DNA of 64,000 nt from Candidatus Omnitrophota bacterium (GTDB lineage: Bacteria > Omnitrophota > Gorgyraeia > Gygaellales > Profunditerraquicolaceae): contig JAQUOV010000002.1 in assembly GCA_028716965.1 (NCBI GenBank), forward strand, positions 132,472 through 196,471, written 5' to 3'. Made by a program: the position numbers and the translations under genes. Numbering within the stretch: position 1 is the stretch's first letter; every line of letters starts with the position of its first letter. Under the pieces are notes generated by a model. The model was not told the DNA's origin and did no database searches. It saw only the letters and a list, made by a program, of their open reading frames with translations. Positions 2,098 to 53,844 of the stretch are shown piece by piece.

Positions 2098-2239
2098 TCC
2101 AAAGATTATTAGATGTATATTTTTATTCTAATTTACCATAAATATAATAAGTTATATACTTTTTAACAGAAACATAACCCCTTTAATACTACGACGATAT
2201 TAAGTTCTTAAATATATATAAATAGAAGGAGATTATAGA

Positions 2240-3331: not shown

Positions 3332-3335
3332 AACA

Positions 3336-6061
<2,726 letters not shown>

Positions 6062-6063
6062 CT

Positions 6064-6900
6064 ATGGAAATAATTGCGCCGGATAAATCTAACGAAATTT
6101 TATATCCCGTTGCTGTCTTTAAGGAATCCTGGGGGCTCTGTATTAGGAGTTTAAAGAAATTAAGCCTGATTTACATAATTTTTAATCTGCCGATAATTGC
6201 TTTTTACTTTACTCCTGTGGCAGAAAAAATGCAGGCAGGGAAGCCAAGCCTTACAACCTTTCTTTTATTTTTCGTTCCGGCTTTGACCGCCAGCATTTGG
6301 TGTCACATTTCTCTGCTGCTGGCGGCAAAGAAAACGGTTGGTTTTGAGGATTATGAGATTGGGGAAAGCATAGCCCAGACAAAACCTTTATTTTTTAAAT
6401 ATCTCGGCACGGTTTTGCTCATCTCCCTTTTTATATTGGGCGTTGCTATGTTTAGCAGCTTGTCTGTCGCGCTGGCCTTGACGCTGTTGTTAAAGATAAA
6501 TAAGCTGTTGGCGACGCTGGTTTGCCTTGCTTTGGGAATAGCGATTATTGCATCAGCAGTTTATTTAATTATTCTCTGGTCTCTTGCTGCTACAGTTTGC
6601 GTTCTCGAGAACCTTCACCCTATAGCGGCCTTAAAGCGCAGCACCGCTTTAGTTGGAAACCGGGTGCTTCCGGTAGTATTTGTATATTCTTTGTTCGTGG
6701 CCGCATGTATTATATGTTTGATTCCATTTGTTATCGCTGGGGCAATCTTGGGCATAGGTGGCAATGCTGTTGAGGCAAATCAGGCAGGTTCAATATACAG
6801 CATGTTTATAAATATTGTCTTAATCCCGTTCTGGTCCGTACTTACAGTAATGTTGTATAAAAAATTACAAGGGGCATTAGAAACTAATGTATACGCGTAA
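6064..6900 (+). CDS. Hypothetical polytopic membrane protein
   Basis: 278 aa with several long hydrophobic segments. It is wedged between gyrB and gyrA and overlaps the gyrA start by 14 nt. Confidence 0.5.
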
Positions 6901-21100: not shown

Positions 21101-24100
21101 TAAAAGAGTCTTCAAACATCTCGAATCAGCCTATAGATACAGGTCGGCGCAGATTTATTCAATTACTCGGTTCATTCGGATTAGCGAGCCTCATCGTACC
21201 AGTTCAAACTCAAGCTCAAATGTTATTCCAGTGTATTATTCAGGTAGTAACTAATGTGTTAACCGATCGTGAAATTAAGCATATTAATGCGTGGGTTAAG
21301 GAATTAATAAGGCTGGCTGATCAAGGCAATGTTGCGGAATTTCAGCAACAATTTAATAGGATGTATGAGGGGAAACCAGTTAGGAAAGATGAGGAAAAGG
21401 ACCCGACCATAACAATGAACATATCGGCTCATAGCGTGGGTTTTAGTATGGAAGCGTATACGAGACCCAAAGTCATCATTCCAAATAAGCTCTTTTTATC
21501 TAAAAATTTTTATAATTGGAAAAGTGAAATCAAGCAAGAGATTGTAAAACAGATCTTGAAAAATGCTTATGGGCTCGGAGCCCCAGAGTCATTTGAGGTC
21601 CTTGAGATTCTTGATGCGATCAGCTCAAACGAAAGACTTTTTAATATGCTAGACATGGAAGAGCAAAAATTGCTTTATACATACATAGGAAAGGCTTCAG
21701 TCAGCCAGGCATTGCTTTCTACGGAGAAAGATGTGTACCCTGCTATTGGCAGATGGATAAATTCTATCCATGATTTATATGAACAGGATGGAAAGTGGTC
21801 GGAATATGTTAAAAAATATCTTGATTCGCGCTTTTGCTCTGATGAGCAGTTATATATTTTATTGAGCCGCGGAGGGTTTGAATTATACACAGGGACATTT
21901 AACCGCGTGTTTGATGAGTTGCTAAAGAGAATACAGGCCAGTGGAAATATTATAGCATGGTTAAGCAAAGTTGATTCTGCGGGAAACATGACAAGCGAAT
22001 TTTTGTTATCGTTATCCGGCAGAGGAAGGCTAATTAGGGTGATTGATGCTTCAGCCGTTAATTTGGCCCAAAAAGAGAAGATGCTAAAACAGATTTGTGA
22101 CATAATTCGTAATATTGCATCAGCTAATGCAAAAGAGTTAATGGAGGAAAAGACTAAAATGGCGTATATTTCTAATGCCGTAAAAGATATCTTTAATTAT
22201 GGCAATAGTAACGTCAATGACTATTTAAAAGAGATTATTCTGCAGATAAAAGATAATGGGGGTATATATGGAAAAGCGTTTTCGCTTATGATTATGGCTA
22301 AATTCCAAAATGTTTTTGGTTCGACCCCGGAAACCGAAGAAATAAGAGCGGTGCTTGATTATGCTGCCAGCCCTCCATACGAACAAATACTCAAGCCCGG
22401 GAAGCGCTTAGTAGTATTAGTCGACTTCGCAAATTCCGCAAAAGATTTCTTAGGTGAATTAGTAAAGCAGTTGAGCAGTAATTATGGAGGAAGATATAAA
22501 ATAAGAAGCCATAAGCCTGATGTGCAGCATGGGATTGTAACCGTCATTGGAGGTTCAATTAATGGGGTGGATATAGAATTCCATCTTGCCAGAGGCATAT
22601 CCGGAGATGAATTTAGGGAAACGATGGAATCAGGAAAGTATTCAATTATTTTCACACGGCATCATTCTTATGAAGGTGGGGATTTTCTTGGGGTAGGATC
22701 AAATACCGTAATTCCGCAGGTAATCGGGACAGTTGGGACAGGCAAGGGTATTGAAAATAACGCTTTTTCAATTGTGCTTAGCGAAGAAATCGCGAAGACA
22801 TTCTCTTCTAGAACAGGGTGGGATGAGGTTTGGCATAATATGCGCAAGCGGTTACCCAAAAGTATGGATAATTATTTACCGCCCAATCACATTTCATTTT
22901 TGATATCATACGTATTGAATGCTATAGATACGCGTTCAACAAAGATAGATCTCAACGGCGATATTCATAACAAGCAACTGATAAAGACAATAGTGGTAGA
23001 TGGTGGTTGCGGCGGGATTAATCGAATTCCATCATATTTAAATAAGTATGGTTATGCAATAGAGAAATTTAAGAATCACCCAGCGGGAAGTCCATTATCT
23101 ATTAGACAACAAGTGGTCCCTCTAGGCAGTGCAGTGGTTTCTGGTTCATCTTCACCTGCGGACAAGATAGAGAGAGGGGGGAAAGGCGTGGATTATAGGG
23201 CTCTTGCAATAAACAGGATCCGCGATGCCTTTCAGAAAGTGCTTAACCGTAATCCGGAAGATAGAGAGGTCATGGATGTGTTTGGGTTTATAGAATCCGA
23301 CCCAGACGGAACTTATTTGGAAGAAAGAACTTATTTCGCAGTGGCGGAGGCTTATGCTAACGAAATAAAAAGAGCGGGTGCCAGCTCGCCGATTGGCATT
23401 AGCAGAACCCAGGAAGAGTTGGCTTACTACCAGCAATTAAAGGAAAATGGACCGCTGGTATTTGACAAGGATAATGATAGATGGTTTTTGGATGAAGCAT
23501 GGTCAGGTTATGATTATCATAGTGTCCGCAGTTTATTAACACCAATAGATCTAAAGAATCCGGATACATTAGAAGAGGAATTGGGCAGGATAAATGCGAT
23601 TTTCACCAGATTTGATTTAAGTAAGGTAAATAGCTTTGGCGCACTTTATGCATATATAAGATGGAGATTGTCTCCTAATCGTTACGGCGCTAATTCAAGG
23701 GTTTCCGTGGAAACCCTTGTAAACATTATTGAACAGGCACGGGATGGCAAAGAAATCAATATTGCTTTTACGGATCCGTTACTAACCCAAATATTGGATA
23801 AGGCCAAAGATCTGGTTGAGACTGATAAATCCTCCAGCTCGCCGATTAAGTTGTCTTCTAGATTAGCTATGATAGAAACGCAGATATATAATCTTGAGCG
23901 GCTGCTTTTAGATGAGGAGAAGTTAAACAATGGAGAGTGGCTTGAGCTATATTTAGCTGCAGAAGGACAAATCGGGGATGAAGCACTTTATTATGGTAAT
24001 CTGAAAATTGTTCAGGATGCCAAGGGTAATGAATCCAAATTACACCAATTAAAAAGAGCCTTTGAGCCTTATGTAAAAGGGCTTTTAACCAAGGCCAAGG

Positions 24101-37263: not shown

Positions 37264-37322
37264 CTATGAAAAAACCTGCTTGACGGGATGTCGCTAAATA
37301 AGAATATTAGGGGGTGTTTCAT

Positions 37323-37925
37323 ATGGCGCAGGAAATTAAAGATTTGATTGACAGAATACAGCAGGAAGGGGTAATGGCGGCTGAAAATCAGGCAGCGCGG
37401 ATAAAAACCGAAGCAGAATCTTTAGCCCAAAAAATAGTCGCAGAAGCAAAGAAGCAGGCTGAGAAGATTATCGAACAGGCCAACTCCGAGGCGAAGAAAT
37501 TGGATGACTCTACTAATGCTTCTTTAAAGCAGGCAGGCAGGGACCTGCTGATTAGCTTAAGGAAGGAAATCAATTCCATGCTTGATAGATTGGTTAAGCT
37601 GAATATACACCAGTCTTTGACCATAGAGGAGCTAACCAGAATTATCAGGGACTTGATTAAGAATGCGCCGCTTTCCTCAGACAGCCAAATCGTCATTTCC
37701 CTCCCCCAGCAAGATAAGGAGAAAATAGAAAAGGGGTTTTTGAAACAGTTGGCGGAGGAGGTTAAAAAACAGGTAATCTTAAAATCTTCCGATGAAATAG
37801 ATAGCGGGTTTATCATCAGTTTTGATTCCGGAAAGTCAACGTTTGATTTTAGCGATCAGGCTTTAGCGGAGTATATATCAGGATCCCTAAGGCCCGAACT
37901 AAACAAGTTTTTAAAATCAGAATAA
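37323..37925 (+). CDS. atpE: V-type ATP synthase subunit E
   Basis: N-terminal Ala/Glu/Lys-rich coiled coil (AQEIKDLIDRIQQEGV...AEAKKQAEKII) and C-terminal globular domain. The ATG at 37323 follows the GGGGG RBS. The track ORF starts at an upstream GTG at 37314. Confidence 0.7.
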   Translation: MAQEIKDLIDRIQQEGVMAAENQAARIKTEAESLAQKIVAEAKKQAEKIIEQANSEAKKLDDSTNASLKQAGRDLLISLRKEINSMLDRLVKLNIHQSLTIEELTRIIRDLIKNAPLSSDSQIVISLPQQDKEKIEKGFLKQLAEEVKKQVILKSSDEIDSGFIISFDSGKSTFDFSDQALAEYISGSLRPELNKFLKSE

Positions 37926-38462
37926 ATGGGAGCTTATTATACATATTTAATCTCCAGCCTGCCGATGCTTAACTTTTCTTCTCCTGTCCCTTTTAGTCCG
38001 GAAGAGTTCCTTGCAAAATGCAATGGTTTAATTCCGGAAAGAGAGATTGAGCTTTTGCGCAATGCATGTTATGAAGATACATCTTTCTTAAATACAGCGC
38101 CGGATGCAACAGGCATATTGTCAAGATGGTCCGGTTTTGAGGTAGCTTTAAGAAATGAATTGGCCCGCCTCCGGGCTAGGCGTAAAAAGATAGATGCTTC
38201 AAAATTCATCCGTCTTCCTGATAATCCCGAAGCATCTATCAGCCATGTGGCTATGGCCGCTTATAGAAGCACGGCTATATTGGAAGCGGAAAAGGTATTG
38301 GACCAATCCAGGTGGGGTTTTCTGGAATCCTTAAGCCTCGGACATTATTTTGACTTTGATTTTCTTCTGATTTATCTTTTAAAGCTGAAGATTTTGGACC
38401 GCTGGGATAAAGTGCAGAAGGCGGATAAAGAACATTTATTTAATCAGGTAGTTGCAAGCTGA
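37926..38462 (+). CDS. Hypothetical protein in V-ATPase operon (DUF2764-like position, as in Chlamydia/Treponema atp operons)
   Basis: 178-aa ORF between atpE and atpA, the slot occupied by the DUF2764 protein in chlamydial and spirochaetal V-ATPase operons. It is too short for a canonical subunit C(d). Confidence 0.4.
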   Translation: MGAYYTYLISSLPMLNFSSPVPFSPEEFLAKCNGLIPEREIELLRNACYEDTSFLNTAPDATGILSRWSGFEVALRNELARLRARRKKIDASKFIRLPDNPEASISHVAMAAYRSTAILEAEKVLDQSRWGFLESLSLGHYFDFDFLLIYLLKLKILDRWDKVQKADKEHLFNQVVAS

Positions 38463-40206
38463 TATGAAAAATAAAAGATTAGGGCGTATAGTAAGGGTTA
38501 ATGCTAATATGGTTGTCGCAGAAGTTGATGGCCATATAATTCAGAATGAAGTGGCCTATATTTTGCATGGCAGCGAGCGTTTAAAAGCAGAGGTAATCCG
38601 CGTAAGGGGTAAGCGTGCCGAGATGCAGGTCTATGAAAATACCGCGGGATTAAAGGTTGGCCAGGAGGTTGAGTTTAGCGACGAATTGCTTTCTGTTGAA
38701 TTGGGCCCGGGTTTATTGGGCCAGATTTTTGACGGCCTGCAAAATCCGCTTCCGGCCTTAGCGGAAAAATGCGGCTTCTTCCTTAAGCGCGGGGTATACC
38801 TTGAAGCCTTACCTGATGAAAGAGAGTGGGATTTTACCCCTTTGGTAAAACCAGGGGAGAAAGTTTTGGCAGGAACCTGGCTGGGTTTTGTCCCGGAGAA
38901 GATATTCAAGCATTATATCATGGCTCCTTTTTCGCTCTCCGGCAGTCTTGAGGTAGTAAGTATAGTTGCTCAGGGCAGGTATAATTTAAAGCAGCCGGTT
39001 GCCCGCTTGAGAAGCTCTGATGGTAAAATGCACGATGTTTTCCTGCAGCAGATCTGGCCGGTAAAGATCCCCATCCAGGCCTACAAAGAAAAACTCAGGC
39101 CGCTTGAGCCGTTGGTAACAAAAATGCGTCTGATCGACTCTCTCTTTCCTGTCAGCCGAGGAGGTACATATTGTATCCCCGGGCCGTTTGGAGCGGGTAA
39201 GACTGTTTTGCAGCAACTGACCAGCCGGCATGCGGAGGTGGATATAGTAATTATTGCTGCCTGCGGTGAACGCGCCGGTGAAGTGGTCGAAACTCTTAAG
39301 ACCTTCCCGGAGCTAGTTGATCCGCGTACGGGTAAGCCTTTAATCGACCGCACGGTAATTATCTGCAATACCAGTTCTATGCCTGTAGCCGCGCGGGAAT
39401 CAAGCGTTTATACTGCCGCGACAATCGCAGAATATTACCGCCAGATGGGGTTAAATGTTTTATTGCTGGCGGATTCTACATCGCGCTGGGCCCAGGCCAT
39501 GCGTGAAATGTCCGGAAGGCTGGAGGAGATTCCCGGCGAGGAAGCATTTCCGGCCTATCTTGAATCGCGGATAGCTTCTTTCTATGAAAGAGCAGGTTTA
39601 GTGCGTTTACATAATGGTTTGACAGGTTCTGTTACCATCGGAGGCACGGTAAGTCCTGCCGGAGGAAACTTTGAAGAGCCGGTTACCCAGGCTACGCTTA
39701 AAGTAGTCGGGGCTTTCCACGGGCTTTCCCGGGAACGCTCTGACGCGCGCAGGTATCCGTCGATAGATCCGCTGATCAGTTGGAGTAAATATAAAGGTTT
39801 CATTGAAAAGGAAAAAGAAGATCTCGGCCATGAGTTCTTGCGTAGAAGCAATGAAGTTTTTCAGATGATGAAGGTTATTGGCGAGGAAGGTACATCGCTT
39901 AGAGATTATATCGAGTACCTCAAAGGGGAATTCTTCGATTTTGTTTATCTGCAGCAGAATGCCTTTGATGCCGTGGATGAATCTACCTCCAAGGAAAGGC
40001 AGATTTATATATTTGATTTCATTCATGATATCCTGCTTAGTGAATTTAAATTGGAGGATAAACAGGAGGCGCTGCATTTCTTCCAAAAGTTAAGGCAACT
40101 GCTAAAAACATGGAATTCCGCAGCATGGGATAGTGAAGAATTCAAAAAAATAGAAGAAGAGATAGGGATATTTTTGGAAGAGAAGAAAAGCAAGAAGGCA
40201 GAATAA
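38452..40206 (+). CDS. atpA: V-type ATP synthase catalytic subunit A
   Basis: 584 aa with Walker [10 protein letters not shown] and the A-subunit non-homologous insert region. Confidence 0.95.
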
Positions 40207-40207
40207 G

Positions 40208-41509
40208 ATGCAGAAAGTCTATACTAATATTGTTCAGATAGCCGGGGATGTCGTTACCGTGGAAGCTGAAGGGGTGGGCTATATGGATATTGCTGAAATT
40301 TCCACCCGCCGCGGCGTGTCTTTAGCCCAGGTAATCCGTATTGATTCTGAAAAAGTTTTTCTACAGGTTTTTGCCGGTAGCCGCGGGATATCTACTGGCG
40401 ATAAAGTGAGGTTTTTAGGCCACCCCATGCGCGTGGCTACCGGAGAGAACTTGCTTGGCCGCATATTTAACGGAAGCGGTCTGCCTTTAGACCGCGGTCC
40501 GGCCTTATCTGAAGATATGGTTGATGTCGGCGCTCCTCCGGTTAATCCGGTGAAAAGAATAGTTCCTGATAAGATGATCCGTACCGGCATACCCCTGATT
40601 GATGTTTTTAATTCTTTGGTAGAATCTCAGAAATTACCCATCTTCTCAATTGCCGGTGAACCGTACAATGAGCTTTTATCCAGGATTGCCATTCAGGCTG
40701 AAGTCGACATTATTATCCTAGGGGGCATGGGTTTGAAATATGACGATTATTTATTCTTCAAAGAGACATTAAATAAACATGGGTCTTTGAACCGTTCTAT
40801 ATTCTTTATGCATACCGCTTCTGATCCGGTGGTTGAGTGCCTGCTTGTTCCGGATATAGCCCTGGCCGTTGCCGAGGATTTTGCTTTAAAAGGAAAACGC
40901 GTATTAGTGTTGCTTAGTGATATGACTAATTTTGCCGATGCCTTAAAAGAGATCTCTATAACCATGGAGCAGGTTCCCTCTAACCGCGGGTATCCGGGTG
41001 ATCTTTACAGCCAGTTAGCCAGTCGCTATGAAAAGGCGGTTTCTTTTCAGGGCGCCGGTTCGATTACCATCCTTGCTGTCACTACTATGCCCGGAGATGA
41101 TGTAACACATCCTGTGCCCGACAATACCGGGTATATTACCGAAGGCCAGCTGTACCTTAAGGGCGGGGTTATCGAGCCCTTCGGATCTTTGAGCCGGCTT
41201 AAGCAACAGGTAAACGGGAAAACCCGTTCGGACCACCGCACAATCATGGATATGATGATCCAGCTTTTTGCCAATTACCGGCAGACCGTAGAAAAACAAT
41301 CAATGGGTTTTCAGATGAGCGCCTGGGATAATAAATTACTTAAATACGGCGAGCTTTTTGAAAAAAATATGATGTCTCTTAAAGTAAATATTCCTTTGGA
41401 AAAGGCTTTAGATCTGGGTTGGCAAATATTGGCGGAAAGCTTTAGCCCGGAGGAAACCGGTATCAAGCGCTCGATTATCGAGCAGTATTGGCCAAAGAGC
41501 AGCAGGTAG
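40208..41509 (+). CDS. atpB: V-type ATP synthase subunit B
   Basis: 433 aa non-catalytic B subunit ([19 protein letters not shown]...). Confidence 0.95.
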
Positions 41510-41548
41510 AATAGTATGGCGGTTATAATTTCTTAATAAATCCGAGAG

Positions 41549-42166
41549 ATGGCCAAAATAAAATTCACCAAGGGAGAATTAAAGAGGCAGCGTGATGCAT
41601 TAAGGCAGTTTCAGCGTTATCTGCCCACTTTGCAGTTGAAAAAACAGCAGTTGCAGCTGGAGATCCTGCAGCAGGGCCTGTTGCTTGAAGAAAGAAAACA
41701 GTCTTTGATTAAGAAGCGGCAGGGGGTTGATCATTGGATCGGTCTACTCAGTTATCCGCAAGCCGACTTAAAACCATTCTTATCGCCGGAAAAAACAAAT
41801 ACGCATTTTAAGAATATCGCCGGCGTGAATATCCCCATATTTGATAGTCTGGAATTTGGCAGGGGTGAATATGATTTATTTTCTACTCCTTTATGGGTTG
41901 ACGCGGCGATTGAGGCGCTTAGAGAAGTTATAACCCTAAAGAAAGAGATCCTGGTGCGCCAGGAAGGTATCGGCGTATTGCGGAACGAATTGCGTACCAC
42001 CACCCAACGGGTAAATCTGTTTGAGAAGGTTAAGATCCCCCAGGCAGAAGAAAATATCCGCTTGATCAAGATTTATATAGGCGACCAGATGGCTAATGCC
42101 GTGGGCCGTTGTAAAATTGCTAAGAGAAAAATCGAAGAGCTGGTTTTAGAAGAGGCGATAGCATGA
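41549..42166 (+). CDS. atpD: V-type ATP synthase subunit D
   Basis: 205 aa coiled-coil central-stalk subunit (MAKIKFTKGELKRQRDALRQFQRYLPTL). Confidence 0.8.
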   Translation: MAKIKFTKGELKRQRDALRQFQRYLPTLQLKKQQLQLEILQQGLLLEERKQSLIKKRQGVDHWIGLLSYPQADLKPFLSPEKTNTHFKNIAGVNIPIFDSLEFGRGEYDLFSTPLWVDAAIEALREVITLKKEILVRQEGIGVLRNELRTTTQRVNLFEKVKIPQAEENIRLIKIYIGDQMANAVGRCKIAKRKIEELVLEEAIA

Positions 42167-43944
42167 TTGTGAGGATGAAGAAAATATTTCTGTTGATCCG
42201 GCAGGACCAGGCGCATGCCGCTTTGGACAGGTTGGGCGATTTGGGCTTGGTGCATGTTGAGCATGAGAACGCTCCTTCCGGGCTTGAGATCAGCCAGATC
42301 AATGAGAAGCTAATCCTTATCGAACAGGCCAGGTCTATTTTATCCGCATACGGCCGGAAAACCACCGCAAAACATATACCCCGCAAACATGAGGATTTAG
42401 ATACTGTCTGCCATCATATAATTGGCTTAAAGAAGAGATATGATCAATTAAAAGAGTATTCGGTAACCTTGAATAACTGGATAGATATATGGGGGGCCTG
42501 GGGAGATTTTGACCCCGCTCAGATAAAGGCTTTGCAGCAAAAAGGGGTTTTAATTAGATTTTACCAGATCCCCAAGGATAGGTTAAAGACCTTGCCGCCA
42601 GACATATTGCTGAAGAAAATTTCTGCGCATGGCGCGTTGACCAATTGTTTAGTTGCGGCAACAAAGAATATAGAGATTGGTTTTAAGGAATTAGAATTAC
42701 CCAAGTCATCCCTATCCGGTATGATAAACAGGCTTAGTGAAGATACCAGGATTATGCAGGACATAAGAGAGGAGATGGAGGCACATCTGATTTATAGCAA
42801 AGACCTTCTTGCCGCCGAAGAATCCCTTTTAAACCAAAAAGATTTTTATTCTGTATTAAAAGGCATGGGGTTGGCAAATAAGATTGCGTACCTGAAAGGT
42901 TATATACCTATAGACGCGGAAGATACACTGGTTAAGCAGGCAAGGCAAAACGGTTGGGGGATCTTAACCCTTGAGCCTAAAGAGCAGGATGCCGTGCCGA
43001 CCTTAGTGCGCAATCCCGCCTGGATTGCGCTTATAAAACCGGTATTAAAATTACTGGAGCTTGTTCCCGGTTACCATGAACTTGACATAAGCCCTCTTTT
43101 CATTATATTTTTTAGCATTTTCTTCGGCATGCTTATTGGCGATGCTGGATACGGAACAATTTATTTTTTGCTTAATCTCTGGATGCAAAAGAAGTTTGGA
43201 TATAAAGTTAAAGATAAAAGCGTATTTTTCCTCTTTTATATCTTAAGTTTTTGCGCTATTATATGGGGGTTATTAACCGGGACATTTTTCGGCCAGGAAT
43301 GGCTGTTGAATATAGGGATAAGACCATTGGTCCCGGTTCTGCATAATGCGTCGTTTGTCCAGGCATTATGTTTTTTTATCGGCGCGCTGCACTTATCTCT
43401 GGCTCATGGCTGGAAGGCAATGTTAAAAGCGCCGGCATTGTCAGCCTTGGCAGAGGCGGGTTGGGTCTTTATTATCTGGGCAGTGTTCTTCCTGGCGAAT
43501 AGCTTGCTTTTAGGGGATACATTCCCTTTGGCCGGAAGCTGGCTGATTATATCTGGGTTAATCCTGGTTTTATTCTTTAGCAGCCCGCAAAAAAACATAT
43601 TTAAAGCAATAGGCGCCGGCTTAAGTACTATAGCTTTAAGCCTGGTTAACAGCTTTACCGATGTAGTCTCTTATATCCGCCTTTTTGCGGTGGGTTTGGC
43701 TACCGTAGCCATCGCGGATGCTTTTAATGCCATGGCCGCAGGGATCGTTAAAAAAGGTGATTTTTTAACGATAATTATAGCTATTTTGGTTATTATCTGC
43801 GGGCACGCACTTAATATTATTTTGGGTCCGATGTCAGTTTTGGTCCATGGGGTAAGGCTTAACGTGCTGGAGTTTTGCAGCCACGCCAATGTTGCATGGA
43901 ATGGTTTTGCATATAAACCGTTTCGTAAGAAAAAGGAGAGTTAA
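42163..43944 (+). CDS. atpI: V-type ATP synthase subunit I (a)
   Basis: 593 aa with an N-terminal cytoplasmic domain and a C-terminal polytopic membrane domain, the latter carrying RLFAVGLATVAIADAFNAMAAG. Confidence 0.8.
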   Translation: MIVRMKKIFLLIRQDQAHAALDRLGDLGLVHVEHENAPSGLEISQINEKLILIEQARSILSAYGRKTTAKHIPRKHEDLDTVCHHIIGLKKRYDQLKEYSVTLNNWIDIWGAWGDFDPAQIKALQQKGVLIRFYQIPKDRLKTLPPDILLKKISAHGALTNCLVAATKNIEIGFKELELPKSSLSGMINRLSEDTRIMQDIREEMEAHLIYSKDLLAAEESLLNQKDFYSVLKGMGLANKIAYLKGYIPIDAEDTLVKQARQNGWGILTLEPKEQDAVPTLVRNPAWIALIKPVLKLLELVPGYHELDISPLFIIFFSIFFGMLIGDAGYGTIYFLLNLWMQKKFGYKVKDKSVFFLFYILSFCAIIWGLLTGTFFGQEWLLNIGIRPLVPVLHNASFVQALCFFIGALHLSLAHGWKAMLKAPALSALAEAGWVFIIWAVFFLANSLLLGDTFPLAGSWLIISGLILVLFFSSPQKNIFKAIGAGLSTIALSLVNSFTDVVSYIRLFAVGLATVAIADAFNAMAAGIVKKGDFLTIIIAILVIICGHALNIILGPMSVLVHGVRLNVLEFCSHANVAWNGFAYKPFRKKKES

Positions 43945-43945
43945 A

Positions 43946-44401
43946 ATGGAAACAGGGGTTTTAATGCAATTTAAAGATCTGGGTTTAGAGTTAGTACTTG
44001 GTCTTTCGGCTCTGGGTTCTGCCGCCGGCGCAGGGGTAGCGGGGATGGCTGCCATAGGGGCATGGAAGAAGAACTTCAACCAGAATAAAAGCGCCTCATT
44101 TTTATTGGTCGCTTTAGTGGGGGCGCCTTTAACACAGACAATCTATGGCAATATCGTAATGACCAAAATGGTGGAATTGGCAAATAAGGGGCAATACCTT
44201 TGGGGAATAGGTGCTTTTGCCGGTATGGCAATAGGCCTTTCCGCTTATTTTCAAGGCAGGTGCTCTGCCTGTGCCTGCGATGCGATGGGCGAAACCGGCA
44301 AAGGCTTCGGCAATTACCTGGCGGTGTTGGGTATCGTTGAAACGGTTGCGCTTTTTGTAATGGTGTTTACTTTGATTATTATCGGCAAGCTATCCGGGTA
44401 A
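43946..44401 (+). CDS. atpK: V-type ATP synthase proteolipid subunit K
   Basis: METGV start preceded by the AAGGAGAG RBS. The sequence is Gly/Ala-rich and hydrophobic with LGSAAGAGVAGMAAIGAW... The track ORF starts earlier at 43889. Confidence 0.8.
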   Translation: METGVLMQFKDLGLELVLGLSALGSAAGAGVAGMAAIGAWKKNFNQNKSASFLLVALVGAPLTQTIYGNIVMTKMVELANKGQYLWGIGAFAGMAIGLSAYFQGRCSACACDAMGETGKGFGNYLAVLGIVETVALFVMVFTLIIIGKLSG

Positions 44402-44475
44402 TGATTTTGAGGCGGATTAACTCGTCCTTAAAAAGATGATTTCGCTGGTCCGCGGTAAAGTAACTTAGATTTTGG

Positions 44476-44552
44476 GGGCGATTAGCTCAGTTGGTTAGAG
44501 CGTCTGACTTACATTCAGAAGGCCAGGGGTTCAACTCCTCTATCGCCCACCA
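44476..44552 (+). tRNA. tRNA-Val (anticodon UAC)
   Basis: Acceptor GGGCGAU/AUCGCCC; D-arm GCUCAGUUGGUUAGAGC; anticodon stem UCUGA/UCAGA with loop CUUACAU; T-arm AGGGGUUCAACUCCUCU; encoded CCA. Confidence 0.85.
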
Positions 44553-44627
44553 TTAAAGATCAAAAATAAATAGTGGATTTTGGTTTAAAAGAAAGTATAA
44601 TAAGTTCCTAAAATTTAAATATTCGCG

Positions 44628-44706
44628 GGGGTCGTGGCCTAGTCTGGTTTAAGGCGCCTCCCTGTCACGGAGGAAATCGCGAGTTCAAATCTCGTCGGCC
44701 CCGCCA
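44628..44706 (+). tRNA. tRNA-Asp (anticodon GUC)
   Basis: Acceptor GGGGUCG/CGGCCCC; anticodon stem CCUCC/GGAGG with loop CUGUCAC; T-arm GCGAGUUCAAAUCUCGU; discriminator G; encoded CCA. Confidence 0.8.
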
Positions 44707-44710
44707 GTTA

Positions 44711-44745
44711 AAAAGCCGCAAATCAATTTGCGGCTTTTTGCTTTT
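44711..44745 (+). terminator. Rho-independent terminator after the tRNA-Val/tRNA-Asp pair
   Basis: AAAAGCCGCAAAT-caa-ATTTGCGGCTTTT perfect 13-bp stem followed by TGCTTTT. Confidence 0.8.
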
Positions 44746-46388: not shown

Positions 46389-46709
46389 ATGACAACTATT
46401 GATGATTTCAGGAAGTTGGATTTAAGAATAGCAGAAATTAAAGAGGTTAATGAGCATCCTAACGCCGATAAATTGTTAATTTTGACTTTGGATTTGGGGG
46501 ATAGGCAAAAACAGGTGGTTGCCGGCATAAGGAGTTTTTATTCCAAGGAAGAGCTTTTGGGTAAACAGGTGGTTTTGGTGGATAATCTTGAACCGGCAAC
46601 CTTACGCGGCGTAGAAAGCCAGGGGATGATCTTGGCCGGCTCCGATGAAAATACACTGGCTATTGTTAGTCCCGAGAGAAAACTTAAGATAGGAAGCATT
46701 GTTAAATGA
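46389..46709 (+). CDS. tRNA-binding domain protein (CsaA/Trbp111/EMAP-II-like)
   Basis: 106 aa with FRKLDLRIAEIKEVNEHPNADKLLILTLDLGD...VVAGIRSFYSKEELLGKQVVLVDNLEPATLRGVESQGMILAGS, the OB-fold tRNA-binding signature. Confidence 0.8.
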   Translation: MTTIDDFRKLDLRIAEIKEVNEHPNADKLLILTLDLGDRQKQVVAGIRSFYSKEELLGKQVVLVDNLEPATLRGVESQGMILAGSDENTLAIVSPERKLKIGSIVK

Positions 46710-47215
46710 TTAAACAGTTTGTCCCGCAGGAGTTTTGTCTTAAGTGCAGGGGTTGCTGCCGCTTCAGGGAAGCTGACTCCGTATGGAGCCCATGTCTTAT
46801 GGACGAAGAGATACAGTTACTTTTAGACAAGAAAGATATCCCGGCTGCCTCTATCTCCATTGAACGGCGCATACAGCTTATAGCTAATCCCAATGGCGTA
46901 GATTTTATCTGCCCGTTTTTAAGCAGTTTAAGTAATAAATGCGCTATTTACGATATCCGTCCGTTTGAATGCCAGCTTTACCCTTTTTTGATTAACCTGC
47001 GTAAGGATAAAATACTCCTGACCGTAGACTTAAATTGCCCTTATGTTTGTGAAAAAATAAACAGCCCGGAAATCAAAGATTATATTTCTTATCTTGCCGG
47101 TTACCTGAATTCTCCGGAACAGCTAAAGATGCTAAAGGATAACCCGCGACTTATCCAGGCTTATGAAGAGGTAAGAGAGGTGGCCGAGCTAATATTCCCC
47201 CATGAAATTAAATAA
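46706..47215 (+). CDS. YkgJ-family (UPF0153) Cys-cluster Fe-S/Zn protein
   Basis: 169 aa with the CLKCRGCCRF motif (CxxCxxCC) and further conserved Cys residues. It overlaps the upstream gene by 4 nt. Confidence 0.6.
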   Translation: MIKQFVPQEFCLKCRGCCRFREADSVWSPCLMDEEIQLLLDKKDIPAASISIERRIQLIANPNGVDFICPFLSSLSNKCAIYDIRPFECQLYPFLINLRKDKILLTVDLNCPYVCEKINSPEIKDYISYLAGYLNSPEQLKMLKDNPRLIQAYEEVREVAELIFPHEIK

Positions 47216-48098
47216 GTTAACATTAAAAGACAGGAGGGTATTTAATAAGCACCTTGCTTTTTCCAGGCATGAGCTTTCGGCATTTTCTTTTGCCAACATC
47301 TACATTTGGCGGGCCATCTTTGATATCCAATGGTCTTTGTTTGAAGGCATCCTCTGCGTATTTTTTCGCGATAAGACAGGCTGTTTTATGTATCTGCCGC
47401 CGTTAGAAAAAGAGCGGCACCCGCTGGTTATAAAAAAGGCATTTGCGGTAATGGATAGCATTAATAAGAACAGGGATATCTCGCGTATTGAAAATATCGG
47501 ACAAGAAGATATAGAATATTACCGGGCCTTAGGTTATTTGTGCCATCAGAAATATCCCGATTACCTTTGTTCAAGGAGCGACTTGGCTTATCTTAAAGGG
47601 AATAAATTTAAATCCCAGCGCGCCGCGTATAATTATTTTGTCAAACATTATGATTTCAAAGTGTTAAAGCTTAAGGCAAAGGATAATGCCAGTTGTTCAA
47701 TTCTATTTAATGAGTGGATAGAAGAGCGTAAAACGCACTGCCGCCAGGACCTTTATTGCGGCATGCTTGAAGATAACCGCAAAGTAATCAGAGAAGCCTT
47801 ATTTAATTATAGGCAGCTGGACCTGGAAGGCATAGTGGTGATGGTCGGTAAAAAGATAAAAGGTTTTACCTTTGGTTATAAATTAAATAATAATACCTTT
47901 TGCATACTTTATGAGGTTACCGATCTCTCTATTAAAGGCCTTGCCCAGTTTATTTTCCGCAGGTTCAGCACGGAATTGAAAGATTATGATTATATCAATA
48001 TCATGGATGATTCAGGGCTGGATAATTTACGGAAGGTGAAACTTTCCTATAAACCGCGGCGGTTGATCCCCGCTTATATTGCAACCAGAGATGCTTAA
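47202..48098 (+). CDS. DUF2156 protein (MprF C-terminal-like, putative aminoacyl-tRNA-dependent transferase fold)
   Basis: 298 aa. The N-terminal SAFSFANIYIWR pattern and C-terminal DDSGLDNLRKVKLSYKP (GL..FK..F.P-like) resemble the LPG-synthase C-terminal / FemAB-like family. Assignment is from remembered family patterns only. Confidence 0.5.
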   Translation: MKLNKLTLKDRRVFNKHLAFSRHELSAFSFANIYIWRAIFDIQWSLFEGILCVFFRDKTGCFMYLPPLEKERHPLVIKKAFAVMDSINKNRDISRIENIGQEDIEYYRALGYLCHQKYPDYLCSRSDLAYLKGNKFKSQRAAYNYFVKHYDFKVLKLKAKDNASCSILFNEWIEERKTHCRQDLYCGMLEDNRKVIREALFNYRQLDLEGIVVMVGKKIKGFTFGYKLNNNTFCILYEVTDLSIKGLAQFIFRRFSTELKDYDYINIMDDSGLDNLRKVKLSYKPRRLIPAYIATRDA

Positions 48099-48912
48099 AC
48101 ATATTGATGAGGTAGAGTTTACTATATTTGATACGGAGACTACCGGACTTAACCCGGCTTCCGGGGATCGTATAGTTGAGCTGGCGGGCTTAAGAGTTAA
48201 AGGCAGGGAGAGAATTGCTAAATTCGATATGTTAGCTAACCCGGGCAGAGAAATTTCCCCGGAAGCTTTTGCGGTCAATAAGATCACGCCGGAGATGCTT
48301 AAAGATGCCCCAGCCATAGAGATAGCAATACCCAGGTTTCTTGATTTTTCCCGGGGCAGCTTTCTTTGTTCCTACAATGTTGAATTTGATTTGAGTTTCT
48401 TGAACAGTGAATTAAGGTTTAGCGGTTTACCGGCCCTGGATGGCCAGGTTTTCTTTGATATATTGACTATGGCAAAACGCCTTATGCCGAACCAGCAACG
48501 TTATGCCCTTTGGTTTATAGCTGAGAAATTAGGGATTAAGACCAGGCAAGAACACCGTGCTTTTTCCGATGTGGAGATGGCCTGGGAGGTTTTTAGCAGG
48601 CTAAAAGATACCTGCCTGGAAAAAGGGATTACAAGGTTTGCCGATTTCTCAAGCCTATTTTCTTTTAATCCTAAATATTTGGAAAGTCCCCATTTTTTGA
48701 AGATATCCCAAGTTGAGAAAGCGATCAATTTAAAAGCGCGCCTGAAGATAAGATACCTGTCCGTAAAGGATGCGACTATCTCTTCAAGAGAGGTGATTCC
48801 TGCTGAAATCCGTCAGGAGGGGAAAAATAAATATTTAGTCGGGTTTTGTTGCCTAAAACAGGAAGAGCGTGTTTTTAAAATTGATAATATACTGGATCTG
48901 GAGATAGTTTAG
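48079..48912 (+). CDS. DEDDh 3'-5' exonuclease (DnaQ/RNase T-like) fused to a C-terminal WYL domain
   Basis: Exo motifs FTIFDTETTGL (Exo I), FLCSYNVEFDLSFL (Exo II) and HRAFSDVEMAWEVF (Exo III, H-x4-D). The C-terminal ~100 aa ends in KYLVGFCCLKQEERVFKIDNILDLEIV, matching the WYL-domain pattern (xYL...R.F.ldRI). Confidence 0.65.
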   Translation: MQPEMLKHIDEVEFTIFDTETTGLNPASGDRIVELAGLRVKGRERIAKFDMLANPGREISPEAFAVNKITPEMLKDAPAIEIAIPRFLDFSRGSFLCSYNVEFDLSFLNSELRFSGLPALDGQVFFDILTMAKRLMPNQQRYALWFIAEKLGIKTRQEHRAFSDVEMAWEVFSRLKDTCLEKGITRFADFSSLFSFNPKYLESPHFLKISQVEKAINLKARLKIRYLSVKDATISSREVIPAEIRQEGKNKYLVGFCCLKQEERVFKIDNILDLEIV

Positions 48913-48980: not shown

Positions 48981-50912
48981 GTGTTAAAAAAACATAATGA
49001 CAGTTTAGGTGCGGAACGCAGAAAATATATCCGCCTGGATACCGTCTTACCTGTACAGTTCCGTTTGGAAAGCCTGGACAGCAAACAATCATTGTCACCA
49101 TGGATCCAGGGTTTTACTAACAATATTGGACACGGAGGCATATGTCTTTCGGTAAATGACCTTGCGCCTGAGTTTATAAATTTAATCCGCGAGAAAAAGG
49201 TAAAGCTTGCCATAGAGATCGATATGCCTTTAGGCGGCGATTCTGTATGTGCATCGGTTTCTTTGGCCTGGGTCAAAGAAGGCGGGGGTTTGTCCAAACG
49301 TTATTTAGTGGGTTTAGATTATGAAAAGATCAACCCGGGGCAAAACAGCAGGCTTATACGTTATGCCTGGGCAAGAAAGCTATTTTTACCATTCGTAATC
49401 TTGTCTGTTTTCATTTTGAGTTTGTCTTTGGGGATCGGCGCTTATTTAAACATACAACTGACCCATAAGAATAAGATGCTCGTTGAAGAGCTGGTAGGGG
49501 TTTTGCAAGAATCCAAGTCGGCTAAAGAGCAGTTAAGGCAGATAGCCCAGGAAAAAGCAGCTTTGCAAAGCAGGATTAGTTCCTTGAGTTCACAAATTAA
49601 GTCTATTGCCGAGAAGAAAAGCGTACAAGCTCCGGCTTCCATCGATAATGCAAATGAGTTAAACGGCATAATCGTAGGGCTTGTCCAGGAAAGGGACCTT
49701 CTGCAGGCCAAACTGGCTTCTTTGCAATTAAATGAAAAGACGGCCCAGGCAGAATCGTTGCGCCTTGAGAACAAAAAACTGGTTTTGGAAAAGGCGAACC
49801 TGGATAAAATGTACCAGTGGTTTAAGGTGCGCCAGAACCCGCGCACGGGCCTGGTAATGAGCTTCGAAGGAGATAAGGATATAGATAGCTGGGCCTTTCT
49901 TTACGACCAGGCTTTGCTGATTCAGGTTTATATAAAATTCTCGGATTTTCCACGCGCAAGGAAGATCCTCGATTTCTTTGCTGATGATGCAAAACGGCAA
50001 GACGGATGGTTCCTTAATGCCTACTATGTCAATGACGGCTCTCCTGCAGAATACGTACTGCACTCCGGGCCGAATATCTGGCTGGGTATTTCTATCCTTC
50101 AGTATACCCGCGTCACCGGCGATAAGAAATATTTGAGAATAGCCGAAGAGATCGCCAGTAATATAATCCAGCTGCAGAATTCAGACCCCGAGAACGGTAT
50201 ACGTGGAGGACCGCAGATGAGCTGGTATTCTACGGAGCACCATTTGGATGCTTATGCTTTTTTCAAAATGTTGGCGAGTATAACCAGTACCAGTAAGTAT
50301 GAACAAGCAGGGGAAAAAACTTTGAATTGGCTGGTAAGGCATACTTATGACCGTCAGGACCTGCCGATTAAGCGCGGCAAGGGTGATTCTACTATTGCCA
50401 CGGATACTTACGCATGGTCTATCGCTGCCATTGGCCCGGCTAAGCTTAAGTCTTTAGGTATGGACCCGGATAAAATTATGGAGTTTGTTGAAGAAAATTG
50501 TAGCGTAGAGGTTAACTTCAACCGGCCGGGGGGGCAGGTAGTTAAAATCCGTGGTTTTGATTTTGCCCCGCAACGCAACCTCTCCCGGGGCGGAGTAGTC
50601 TCAAGCGAATGGACAGCCCAGATGGTTGTGTCTTTTAAGATTATGGCAGATTATTACCGCAAGAATGGACAAGCGGATAAGGCCGCTGTTTATCAGGATA
50701 AAGCGGATAACTATCTGGCTCAGCTGGGAAAGACGATTATCTCCAGTCCTTCTCCTTCGGGCCAGGGTGAAGGCTGCCTGCCTTATGCCACGCAGGATTA
50801 TGTGGATACTGGCCATGGCTGGATGACCCCAAAAGGCAAACATACCGGCTCGGTATCGGGGACTGCTTATACTATTTTTGCCTATTATGGCGTCAATCCT
50901 TTGGAATCTTAA
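48981..50912 (+). CDS. PilZ-domain membrane protein with long coiled-coil and large C-terminal domain (possibly (alpha/alpha)6 glycosidase-like)
   Basis: 643 aa. The N-terminal PilZ-like motifs are RRKYIR (RxxxR) and NIGHGGICLSV ((D/N)xSxxG-like). A TM helix LFLPFVILSVFILSLSLGIGAYL and a coiled coil follow. The C-terminal ~350-aa Trp/Tyr-rich domain is of uncertain fold. Confidence 0.5.
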   Translation: MLKKHNDSLGAERRKYIRLDTVLPVQFRLESLDSKQSLSPWIQGFTNNIGHGGICLSVNDLAPEFINLIREKKVKLAIEIDMPLGGDSVCASVSLAWVKEGGGLSKRYLVGLDYEKINPGQNSRLIRYAWARKLFLPFVILSVFILSLSLGIGAYLNIQLTHKNKMLVEELVGVLQESKSAKEQLRQIAQEKAALQSRISSLSSQIKSIAEKKSVQAPASIDNANELNGIIVGLVQERDLLQAKLASLQLNEKTAQAESLRLENKKLVLEKANLDKMYQWFKVRQNPRTGLVMSFEGDKDIDSWAFLYDQALLIQVYIKFSDFPRARKILDFFADDAKRQDGWFLNAYYVNDGSPAEYVLHSGPNIWLGISILQYTRVTGDKKYLRIAEEIASNIIQLQNSDPENGIRGGPQMSWYSTEHHLDAYAFFKMLASITSTSKYEQAGEKTLNWLVRHTYDRQDLPIKRGKGDSTIATDTYAWSIAAIGPAKLKSLGMDPDKIMEFVEENCSVEVNFNRPGGQVVKIRGFDFAPQRNLSRGGVVSSEWTAQMVVSFKIMADYYRKNGQADKAAVYQDKADNYLAQLGKTIISSPSPSGQGEGCLPYATQDYVDTGHGWMTPKGKHTGSVSGTAYTIFAYYGVNPLES

Positions 50913-50915
50913 ATA

Positions 50916-51554
50916 ATGAAGCGCAGGTTAAACCGTATCTTTTTACGGCTTTACTCTTTTTTCGGTCCGCAATATTGGTGGCCCGCGGATAGTGGTTTTG
51001 AAGTAATCATAGGGGCGATTCTTACGCAGAATACTAATTGGGGCAATGTAGAAAAGGCAATCTCATACATTAAAAAAGAAGGATACCTTGATCCGGAAAG
51101 GCTTTTGAAGCTTCCCCTTCATAAGCTGGCACGTTTAATTAAAAGCGCGGGCTATTATAATATTAAAGCAGCCAGGATCAAAAATTTCCTCAAGTTCTTT
51201 TTTGACTCATATTCGGCTGATCTAAAACGCATGTCCGGAAAAGATCCAGCAGCCCTGCGCAAGCAATTACTTGCGGTTAAGGGGATCGGCCCGGAGACAG
51301 CAGATTCCATTTTGCTTTATGCCTTAAATAAACCTGTATTCGTGATCGATGCCTATACTAAAAGAATATTCTCCCGGCACCATCTTTTAGAAGAAGACGC
51401 TACTTATGAGCAGGCCCAGGATGTTTTTATGCGTAACCTCAAGAGCGAAGTAAGATTGTTTAATGAATATCACGCTCTTTTAGTAAAATTGGGCAAGGAT
51501 TATTGCCGTAAACATAACCCCAAATGCGAGATCTGTCCGCTCCATGGTCAATAA
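50916..51554 (+). CDS. HhH-GPD superfamily DNA glycosylase (endonuclease III-like)
   Basis: 212 aa with HhH LLAVKGIGPETADSILLYAL and catalytic Asp in VFVIDAYTKRIFSRH. The C-terminal CRKHNPKCEICPL carries only 3 Cys of a possible Fe-S loop. Confidence 0.7.
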   Translation: MKRRLNRIFLRLYSFFGPQYWWPADSGFEVIIGAILTQNTNWGNVEKAISYIKKEGYLDPERLLKLPLHKLARLIKSAGYYNIKAARIKNFLKFFFDSYSADLKRMSGKDPAALRKQLLAVKGIGPETADSILLYALNKPVFVIDAYTKRIFSRHHLLEEDATYEQAQDVFMRNLKSEVRLFNEYHALLVKLGKDYCRKHNPKCEICPLHGQ

Positions 51555-52854: not shown

Positions 52855-53844
52855 ATGGAAATGTTAAAGATATCTAAAAGGCCGCGGCTTAAAAAGCCAT
52901 ATCTCATTGTTGCCTGGCCGGGCATGGGGGAGGTTGCGTTTAAGGCTGCGGCTTATTTAATCGAAGAGTTAAAGGCTCAGGAGTTCGCCTATCTCCAGCC
53001 GGAAGAGTTTTTTTATCTGACCGGCAGCGTTATACAGTCTGGAATATTGGAAACCCCTCTCCTGCCGCAGGGAAAATTCTATTATTGGAGGAATCCCGCG
53101 GCAAAACGCGCAGGGACGGGGAAAAACGACTTGATTATTTTTCTAAGTAATGCCCAGCCTGACCTATCTAAGGCGGATAATTACGCAAAGATAATTATTG
53201 ATTTGGCTAAGGGTTTAGGCGTGGAAATGGTCGTTAGTTTTGCTTCTATGCCCCAGGCAACCGATCATACCCAAGATTCACGCGTCTGGTTTGCGGCGAC
53301 GGATAAGAAAACAAAAGAAAGTCTGGATAAATATAACTTTATTCCGTTGGAAGACGGACAGATTAGCGGGATGAACGGTTTGTTCCTGGGTATGGCCAAG
53401 AAATCGGGGTTGAAAGGATTCTGCCTGCTCGGCGATATACCCCTTTATACAATTCAGATTGAAAATCCTAAGGCTTCAGCCGCAGTGCTCCTTGGGTTGG
53501 GGAAGATTATAAATCTGCAGATAAATGTACAGCCATTAAAGGAGCAGGCGCAGACGATGGAAAATGAAATTAACAAGCTTTTGGATTATCTGAAGCTCGG
53601 TAGCTCCGGACAGGCCGCTCCTATAGGCGAGGAGGAGGTGGAGCTGATCAAGAAGACCTTAAGTCAGTTTACTAAATTACCGGTTTCGGTAAAAGAAAAA
53701 ATCGAGAAGCTTTTTGAAGAAAGCCGCCTTGACATTACCCGGGCCAGTGAACTAAAAGTGGAACTGGACAAATGGAATGTTTATAAGGAATATGAGGATA
53801 GGTTCCTGGATTTATTCAGGAAGAGCACGGATAAAGGCAATTAA
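52855..53844 (+). CDS. PAC2-family (proteasome-assembly-chaperone-like) protein with C-terminal coiled coil
   Basis: 329 aa. N-terminal KKPYLIVAWPGMGEVAFKAAAYLIEEL and ...SGMNGLFLGMAKKSGLKGFCLLGDIP resemble the PAC2/DUF75 family. Assignment is from pattern memory. Confidence 0.45.
   Translation: MEMLKISKRPRLKKPYLIVAWPGMGEVAFKAAAYLIEELKAQEFAYLQPEEFFYLTGSVIQSGILETPLLPQGKFYYWRNPAAKRAGTGKNDLIIFLSNAQPDLSKADNYAKIIIDLAKGLGVEMVVSFASMPQATDHTQDSRVWFAATDKKTKESLDKYNFIPLEDGQISGMNGLFLGMAKKSGLKGFCLLGDIPLYTIQIENPKASAAVLLGLGKIINLQINVQPLKEQAQTMENEINKLLDYLKLGSSGQAAPIGEEEVELIKKTLSQFTKLPVSVKEKIEKLFEESRLDITRASELKVELDKWNVYKEYEDRFLDLFRKSTDKGN

Follow-up and report, generated by a model that had tools for sequence, protein, structure and literature searches.

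The 64-kb stretch of DNA analysed here (hereafter the window; contig JAQUOV010000002.1 of a Candidatus Omnitrophota bacterium) carries on its forward strand a gene, 48091..48912, whose product joins an N-terminal DEDDh-type 3'-5' exonuclease domain to a C-terminal WYL domain. Both domain assignments are secure. We read the protein as a housekeeping DnaQ-family exonuclease whose WYL tail would tether it to single-stranded DNA (ssDNA), an interpretation drawn from sequence comparison and predicted structures, in which we place somewhat more than even confidence. The WYL domain would then serve as an accessory for binding single-stranded nucleic acid (ssDNA most likely), and its groove would keep hold of the strand while the 3' end enters the exonuclease site. 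Such a tether would raise the affinity or processivity of the enzyme, or would confine its activity to substrates that expose ssDNA (3' tails, gaps, flaps). Its role would likely lie in DNA repair or in replication-associated end trimming, and not in anti-phage defence. What we infer in this reading is the choice of DNA over RNA as substrate, how the tether works and the pathway in which the enzyme acts.

Domain architecture of the exonuclease-WYL protein

The initial annotation had described an open reading frame (ORF) of 277 amino acids, 48079..48912 on the forward strand, that begins at a TTG codon. This frame is real and was confirmed in the ORF listing, and its C-terminal end reads as quoted there, ...YLVGFCCLKQEERVFKIDNILDLEIV; only the start shifts. 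The true start codon is most likely the ATG at 48091 rather than the TTG at 48079, since all homologues begin at the aligned methionine, since the NCBI protein P0001 (100% identity) has 273 amino acids, and since the upstream gene's stop codon shares nucleotides with this ATG (ATGCTTAA). The same top match, identical over 100% of positions, carries the source genome name Candidatus Omnitrophota. Residue numbers throughout refer to the 273-residue protein, which is laid out as follows.

48091..48912, forward strand: exonuclease-WYL coding sequence, 273 amino acids plus stop codon, with the ATG 12 nt 3' of the TTG at 48079
48115..48621, forward strand: DEDDh (DnaQ/PolC-type) 3'-5' exonuclease domain, residues 9-177, from Pfam, NCBIfam, PDB and Foldseek
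48130..48138, forward strand: motif Exo I, D14-T15-E16 (GAT ACG GAG; DTETTG), from the sequence
48376..48390, forward strand: motif Exo II, N96-V-E-F-D100 (YNVEFD), from the sequence
48553..48570, forward strand: motif Exo III, H155-R-A-F-S-D160 (H-x4-D, hence the DEDDh subtype), from the sequence
48622..48669, forward strand: linker motif, residues 178-193, K-G-[IV]-x-D-[FL]-x-[ND]-[FL]-[SL]-x-L-F-[GAS]-x-N
48670..48909, forward strand: WYL domain, residues 194-273; helix at 194-214, then a five-stranded Sm/SH3-like beta-barrel at 218-272

The claim of the initial annotation that the protein's N-terminal portion forms a DEDDh exonuclease holds, the three motifs being conserved and the predicted fold agreeing with it. 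The Pfam RNase_T model (PF00929), which had been proposed as a check, matched residues 12-168 with E = 2.2e-32 and 113.3 bits against a cut-off of 24. D14, E16, D100, H155 and D160 were invariant in 21 of 21 close homologues; in a set of 32 diverse homologues, D14/E16, D100 and H155 were found in 31 and D160 in all 32. Judged from this intact catalytic pentad, the protein is predicted to be a catalytically competent, stand-alone DEDDh exonuclease. One full-length family member of about 31% identity, P0231, has G, Q, T and S at the positions of D14, E16, D100 and H155 while the WYL domain is kept, and may be a catalytically dead, binding-only derivative.

Within the DEDDh superfamily the domain groups with enzymes that act on DNA. 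NCBIfam placed it with the PolC exonuclease, DEDD exonucleases, DinG and the epsilon subunit of DNA polymerase III. The broad dnaq family-domain model TIGR00573 was passed (92.7 bits, cut-off 71.5), whereas the epsilon equivalog models all failed, with 94.9 bits against 222.7 for TIGR01406 and 94.6 against 196 for NF004316. Sequence matches in the PDB were the Thermotoga maritima PolC exonuclease (4e-24), polymerase III epsilon (3e-14), ExoX (5.5e-8) and Cas2-DEDDh (8fy9/8fyc), and RNase T (2f96) appeared with an E-value of merely 0.75. No RNase T model was present among the 25 NCBIfam matches listed of 27 found, and none of the RNase T, Orn and RNase D models scored well in the NCBIfam and PDB sequence searches. 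The full-length AlphaFold2 (AF2) model, built with 21 homologues, had a predicted local distance difference test score (pLDDT) of 87.9 and a predicted template-modelling score (pTM) of 0.85, and it shows the exonuclease fold followed by two helices, a short one (183-190) and a long one (194-214), and by five beta strands. In Foldseek searches of the PDB, target-normalised template-modelling scores reached up to 0.88 against DnaQ (8h2f), epsilon (2gui), DinG (8zef) and PolC (9qpc). The root-mean-square deviation (rmsd) was 1.9-2.4 Å to the stand-alone DnaQ, epsilon and DinG domains and 3.5 Å to full-length PolC (9qpc).

The C-terminal WYL domain that the initial annotation had claimed was likewise borne out by a domain model, a family profile and the predicted fold. 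Pfam WYL (PF13280) matched residues 206-272 with E = 1.7e-10 and 41.2 bits, above its cut-off of 21.8. A profile built from the C-terminal regions of the family matched all solved WYL proteins, among them PafBC (1.9e-26) and DdPif1 (6e-16), and also PafC, BrxR, CapW and DriD. An AF2 model of the C-terminal 98 residues reached a pLDDT of 89, and more than 95 across the barrel. Its top 23 Foldseek matches in the PDB were WYL domains only, with rmsd values of 0.9-2.5 Å over 68-74 columns; the superposed structures included PafBC, BrxR, CapW (one entry with bound ssDNA) and DriD (bound to ssDNA). Y248-L249 is the 'YL' of the WYL motif. Some alignments to PolC extended to about residue 254-260, and homology of the C-terminal region to PolC was considered and rejected: for the C-terminus on its own the score was 23.5 bits (24% identity), and a comparison of profiles returned a probability of 0.2. 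No helix-turn-helix (HTH) family was detected by Pfam or in the AF2 model, the N-terminus being the exonuclease domain, and the AF2 models contain no WCX domain, as the chain ends with the last WYL strand at residue 273. The mode of action of the WYL transcription factors is therefore inapplicable here.

The groove of the domain resembles that of WYL domains with ssDNA-binding activity. In DdPif1 the WYL domain contacts ssDNA through R464, R491, R495, R498 and R501, positions that match residues tested in TePif1, DriD and PafBC (PMC9964779). In the HMMER alignment the first four of these correspond to R233, K256, R260 and K263 and the fifth, R501, to N266. R233, K256, R260 and K263 are lysine or arginine in all or nearly all Omnitrophota sequences, and likewise in the majority of the diverse family members. 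Binding of ssDNA by the WYL domain has been described for PafBC (PMC11804915), DriD (PMC9186387) and CapW (PMC11662680); in PafBC, mutation of the equivalent arginines or of the motif tyrosine abolishes it (PMC11804915). In TePif1 the WYL domain is an ssDNA-binding accessory that stimulates the enzyme (bioRxiv 10.1101/163188; PMC9964779). The retention of four of the five Pif1-type contact residues, together with the superposition on ssDNA-bound WYL folds, argues for ssDNA binding by the WYL domain of the exonuclease.

Between the two domains lies the linker motif, which is conserved by column frequencies over 317 family members of 29-100% identity and is predicted to be helical at residues 183-190 (AF2 secondary structure). 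It loosely resembles the beta-clamp consensus QL[SD]LF, without the glutamine, and occupies the same position as in epsilon; the clamp-binding motif of Escherichia coli epsilon sits at this place, right after the exonuclease domain. The protein might on this ground be regarded as the Omnitrophota counterpart of epsilon, a replicative proofreader tethered to the replisome, possibly through the linker as a beta-clamp peptide, with the WYL domain sensing or holding frayed primer or template ssDNA. In keeping with this, TIGR00573 was passed, JGI annotates relatives as epsilon-family proteins, the PolC exonuclease and epsilon are the nearest solved relatives, the gene is conserved throughout the phylum and lies near the origin, and the [FL]-[SL]-x-L-F-[GAS] motif directly follows the exonuclease domain, which puts it at the extreme C-terminus of those orthologues that have no WYL domain. 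We nevertheless consider a proofreader improbable. The protein falls far under all epsilon equivalog cut-offs and has no epsilon-like alpha-binding C-terminal segment, the linker lacks the consensus glutamine and is predicted to be helical, and the operon partners are non-replication genes. Most non-proteobacterial phyla generally proofread through the PHP domain of DnaE, which would count against this assignment.

Distribution of the family and orthologues without a WYL domain

Hundreds of protein clusters from Omnitrophota contain a close relative of full length. Over 120 clusters, 57-82% identical to the protein, shared its length and its domain pair. A profile search returned 7,165 clusters at E <= 1e-10, of which the best 120 all combined RNase_T with WYL, and where these 120 carried organism-level names they were Omnitrophota or Omnitrophica, bar one generic 'bacterium'; clusters ranked below the best 120 may include exonuclease-only relatives. 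From 1.8 billion representatives, a further search retrieved about 100 at E < 1e-30, mostly full-length proteins of about 270 amino acids and down to 28-30% identity. All members of this distant set that were scanned were RNase_T plus WYL, and the few named ones were again Omnitrophota. The scan of GTDB genomes (alignment A1) gave mostly exonuclease-only DnaQ proteins of other phyla together with five full-length matches of the Omnitrophota type. These distributions point to a conserved housekeeping gene that is passed on vertically within the phylum Omnitrophota.

Among phage and plasmid records only exonuclease-domain matches were obtained, with no close full-length relative, and the IMG/VR viral contigs held no close full-length relative either, the best match being 30% identical. 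The sole full-length viral example was a distant exonuclease-WYL protein of 262 amino acids and 27% identity at 4989-5777 of a putative high-GC viral contig (L100, IMGVR_UViG_3300020202_000104). It scored 66 bits for RNase_T and 26.8 bits for WYL, and its gene adjoins a phage exonuclease gene (phrog_10477), with a DNA methyltransferase gene nearby. The exonuclease-WYL architecture thus exists outside Omnitrophota too, in a DNA-metabolism module. Two other candidates were discarded: a Burkholderiales match reaching residue 225 (L072) proved to be a 745-residue sensor-exonuclease fusion without WYL, and a second viral candidate (L101) had no WYL domain.

Within the phylum, some orthologues consist of the exonuclease alone. 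P0142 (216 amino acids) and P0377 (185 amino acids, Omnitrophota) match the exonuclease domain at 42-44% identity and occupy the same slot as the full-length protein, in the gene order tRNA_bind, CxxCxxCC, LPG_synthase_C, exonuclease, pabB, Aminotran_4. In both cases the following gene begins within 10 bp, leaving no space for a split-off ORF, so that the WYL domain is truly absent and has not become a separate gene. The orthologues without WYL stop 10-40 residues beyond the exonuclease domain, terminating just past the linker motif. In a neighbour-joining tree of exonuclease domains, computed without support values, they were scattered among WYL-bearing proteins and the deepest branches all carried WYL, which suggests that the WYL domain is ancestral and was lost repeatedly; some of the short entries in this tree, whose context was unchecked, may be contig-end fragments. 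The occurrence of orthologues without WYL in the identical slot makes the domain a dispensable accessory and not an obligatory switch.

Genomic neighbourhood and alternative functions

The window begins at or beside the chromosomal replication origin. Its start (760..9316) holds dnaA, dnaN, gyrB, a 278-residue ORF and gyrA in a row, GC skew is positive across its whole length and the cumulative skew climbs monotonically. Judged by the dnaA-dnaN-gyrB-gyrA series and the skew, the exonuclease gene is a leading-strand gene of the core chromosome, some 47 kb away from the origin. It belongs to an array that runs, in its 5' part, through a V-type ATPase operon, tRNA-Val, tRNA-Asp, a hairpin, a 504-residue protein, tRNA_bind, CxxCxxCC and LPG_synthase_C, and continues from the exonuclease-WYL gene onward with a PilZ-type 643-residue protein, an HhH-GPD glycosylase, an M20 peptidase, PAC2 and HAD. 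The array recurs in relatives at 71%, 58% and 43% identity and is syntenic across Omnitrophota. The genes discussed below, with dnaN as the reference near the origin, are:

2240..3331: dnaN
46389..46709, forward strand: stand-alone tRNA-binding protein of the methionyl-tRNA synthetase (MetRS) beta-subunit/Trbp111 type, 106 amino acids (TIGR00399, 130.7 bits against 116.65; PDB match to Trbp111, 2.8e-27)
46706..47215, forward strand: CxxCxxCC (YkgJ-type) putative metal-binding protein (Pfam PF03692), overlapping both adjacent genes
47202..48098, forward strand: LPG_synthase_C (DUF2156) protein (Pfam PF09924, 103.7 bits)
48981..50912, forward strand: 643-residue protein immediately 3' of the exonuclease gene, a conserved neighbour with no Pfam match
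50916..51554, forward strand: HhH-GPD DNA glycosylase, two genes 3' of the exonuclease gene

Upstream, the tRNA_bind gene is found in the window and at ten further loci (L001, L003, L005, L086, L088-L093), down to 33% identity. Between the two stand from zero up to three genes, variable in kind, and the outer flanks are unrelated; the pairing holds with the WYL domain present or not. The genes between are none, CxxCxxCC plus LPG_synthase_C, YjbQ plus LDcluster4, or YjbQ plus an unknown gene plus LPG_synthase_C. The pairing was absent at L087 and at the NPL-UPA2 relative L094. It is an association that may hint at a tRNA-linked function. The CxxCxxCC gene keeps its position at L001, L005, L086, L092 and L093, and the LPG_synthase_C gene lies directly 5' of the exonuclease gene in the window and at L001, L003, L005, L086, L091, L092 and L093. 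The overlap between its stop codon and the exonuclease start suggests translational coupling of the two genes. A pair of pabB-like (Chorismate_bind) and Aminotran_4 (pabC/ilvE-like) genes adjoins the exonuclease gene in several lineages, downstream at L003, L005, L092 and L093 and upstream at L087; the window has none.

Downstream, the homologues of the 643-residue protein at L086 and L090 have an N-terminal PilZ domain (a receptor for cyclic di-GMP, c-di-GMP). The HhH-GPD glycosylase gene is the second gene downstream both in the window and at L001, and is nearby downstream at L003, L086 and L093. A PAC2-family (proteasome assembly chaperone 2-like) protein at 52855..53844, forward strand, is conserved at L001 and L086.

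These neighbours bring up the question of whether the substrate is RNA. The protein could be an RNA or tRNA exonuclease, an analogue of RNase T that trims the 3' ends of tRNA or small RNAs together with the Trbp111-like and DUF2156 proteins, with the WYL domain on single-stranded RNA (ssRNA) tails. The Trbp111-type gene stays upstream in the window and at the ten loci although the genes between and the outer flanks vary, the LPG_synthase_C gene overlaps the exonuclease start codon, and the WYL fold is Sm/Hfq-like (PMC6789036). On the other side, the closest exonuclease relatives are all DNA enzymes, the viral exonuclease-WYL gene sits among DNA-metabolism genes, and the pairing is missing at L087 and L094 (NPL-UPA2); the tRNA_bind protein is a housekeeping MetRS subunit, and its pairing with the exonuclease may be gene order inherited within one phylum. 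We hold an RNA exonuclease to be unlikely. Its more elaborate form, in which tRNA_bind, CxxCxxCC where present, DUF2156 and the exonuclease with or without WYL make up a single tRNA module and the exonuclease is an unrecognised RNase T-like enzyme of 3'-end trimming or quality control whose WYL domain grips ssRNA, appears quite unlikely.

For the tethered DNA exonuclease that we favour, three observations make DNA a likelier substrate than RNA: every strong relative of the catalytic domain is a DNA enzyme (PolC, epsilon, DinG, ExoX, Cas2-DEDDh), RNase T reaching E = 0.75; a conserved DNA glycosylase gene lies within a few genes of the exonuclease gene; and the distant viral exonuclease-WYL protein (L100) is found in DNA-metabolism surroundings. 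Four points weigh against this assignment. Similarity within the DEDDh superfamily is an unreliable guide to specificity for DNA or RNA. Of all neighbours, the tRNA-binding protein is the most persistent, and the coupled upstream gene encodes an aminoacyl-tRNA-transferase fold, both of which hint at RNA. WYL domains have an Sm-like fold, and one at least, WYL1 of Cas13d systems, is reported as an ssRNA binder. Finally, the fifth ssDNA-contact position (R501 of DdPif1) is asparagine or glycine in the Omnitrophota clade, and arginine in many other sequences.

The PilZ-type gene directly downstream raises the possibility of second-messenger control, with the WYL domain binding c-di-GMP or another nucleotide signal and tuning the exonuclease allosterically. 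A precedent is the WYL transcription factor MbpR, which binds c-di-GMP through its WYL region (PMC11880434), and GGDEF genes lie near the exonuclease gene at L086 and L088. However, the MbpR contacts E268 and Y271 are docking-derived and lie about 75 residues past R192, likely beyond the minimal WYL core, whereas the exonuclease-WYL protein stops at the last WYL strand. Since GGDEF and PilZ genes occur commonly, finding them close by is weak evidence, and the groove residues fit the ssDNA-binding set. Control of this kind seems very unlikely to us.

The initial annotation had proposed that a ligand regulates the exonuclease and that the protein plausibly serves nucleic-acid surveillance as an effector or sensor. 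Taken to include anti-phage defence, with the WYL domain as the switch, this proposal could draw on the PADLOC generic Cas-associated DEDDh and WYL models, which match both domains, on the many WYL proteins that regulate defence systems (PMC4012209, PMC9122588), and on the distant exonuclease-WYL protein of the viral contig. The PADLOC matches are at the domain level only. Among ten flanking proteins none matched a component of a defence system; the sole hit among defence models was a nicking-endonuclease model, matched by the HhH-GPD glycosylase weakly and at the level of the fold. The 64-kb window contained no CRISPR-like array, and no cas-related family was found among the genes scanned. 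With the gene in a core-chromosome, phylum-wide syntenic housekeeping context near the origin, with no close relative on phages, plasmids or IMG/VR contigs, and with orthologues that dispense with the WYL domain, the surveillance proposal is disfavoured, and we regard it as highly improbable. The ligand-regulation part fares no better, as the ligands of characterised WYL domains are mostly single-stranded nucleic acid and not small-molecule signals (PMC11804915, PMC9186387, PMC11662680, bioRxiv 10.1101/163188).

Elsewhere in the window, the region 37314..44740 comprises the V/A-type ATPase operon (subunits A, B, D, I and c), tRNA-Val, tRNA-Asp and a strong 14-bp terminator-like hairpin at 44709-44740. 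The 3' CCA is encoded in two of the five tRNA genes of the window, those for Val and Asp, and not in the other three, a split that speaks neither for nor against an RNase T-like role of the exonuclease. An ORF of 4,873 amino acids at 12148..26769, forward strand, had no Pfam match above threshold; DUF5050 appeared below threshold at residues 1775-1924.

Relation to known WYL and DEDDh proteins

The closest known design is that of the Pif1-WYL helicases from thermophilic bacteria (TePif1, DdPif1, SsPif1; PDB 8bnv/8bns), to which we compare the exonuclease by analogy. Both are enzymes with a single C-terminal WYL domain and neither HTH nor WCX. The Pif1 WYL domain is the best single-sequence match of the C-terminal region among solved structures (3e-7) and its second-best profile match (6e-16), the basic ssDNA-contact residues are shared, and in both families some orthologues have the WYL domain and others do not. 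In both the domain would be an accessory ssDNA-binding module and not a signal switch, a role that on the exonuclease side we infer. The partner enzyme differs, a superfamily 1B helicase in Pif1 and a DEDDh exonuclease here. So must the polarity of strand handling, because the WYL domain of Pif1 holds the 5' side whereas an exonuclease engages the 3' end.

On the catalytic side, the epsilon subunit (DnaQ) and the PolC exonuclease have the same DEDDh fold and catalytic residues and are the closest relatives of the N-terminal domain. In contrast to them, the Omnitrophota protein has no alpha-binding segment, fails the epsilon cut-offs and carries a WYL domain, and its exonuclease is not inserted into a PHP/polymerase chain as in PolC. 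Like it, RNase T and ExoX are DEDDh 3'-5' exonucleases that stand alone and work on single-stranded 3' ends, and they are structurally similar; their sequence similarity to it is weak, and neither has an accessory nucleic-acid-binding domain. Cas2-DEDDh and the CRISPR-associated DEDDh and WYL proteins share the DEDDh domain family (8fy9/8fyc; PADLOC models), whereas here the domain is fused to WYL and not to Cas2, in a window without cas genes or a CRISPR array.

WYL domains are understood mainly as ssDNA sensors that activate transcription factors such as PafBC, DriD, CapW and BrxR. These factors, of winged HTH-WYL-WCX architecture, share with it a homologous WYL domain of superposable fold and a conserved arginine-rich groove, for which ssDNA binding has been shown in the factors themselves. 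The present protein differs from them in having neither HTH nor WCX, in that its output comes from an enzymatic domain of the same polypeptide instead of from transcription, and in having no link to DNA-damage regulons or defence operons.

Database labels for the family are generic ('exonuclease domain-containing protein', 'WYL domain-containing protein', 'epsilon subunit family exonuclease'). No description of an exonuclease-WYL fusion was found in the founding WYL paper or in full-text literature searches, and the fusion does not appear in the census of PafBC architectures, which shows only classes of at least 100 sequences. Both domains and the logic of their fusion are already known, and the combination is an uncharacterised, phylum-conserved one and not a new kind of system.

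To our knowledge, the Pif1 helicase is the only documented case in which a WYL domain directly aids an enzyme. If the favoured reading is true, the phylum-wide exonuclease-WYL protein would add a second case, independent of the first, in which WYL serves as an enzyme accessory, and the orthologues that lack the domain in the same slot would provide a natural comparison with and without it. For Omnitrophota, an uncultured phylum in which genome maintenance has hardly been studied, the family also supplies a concrete and testable entry point to the processing of DNA or RNA ends.

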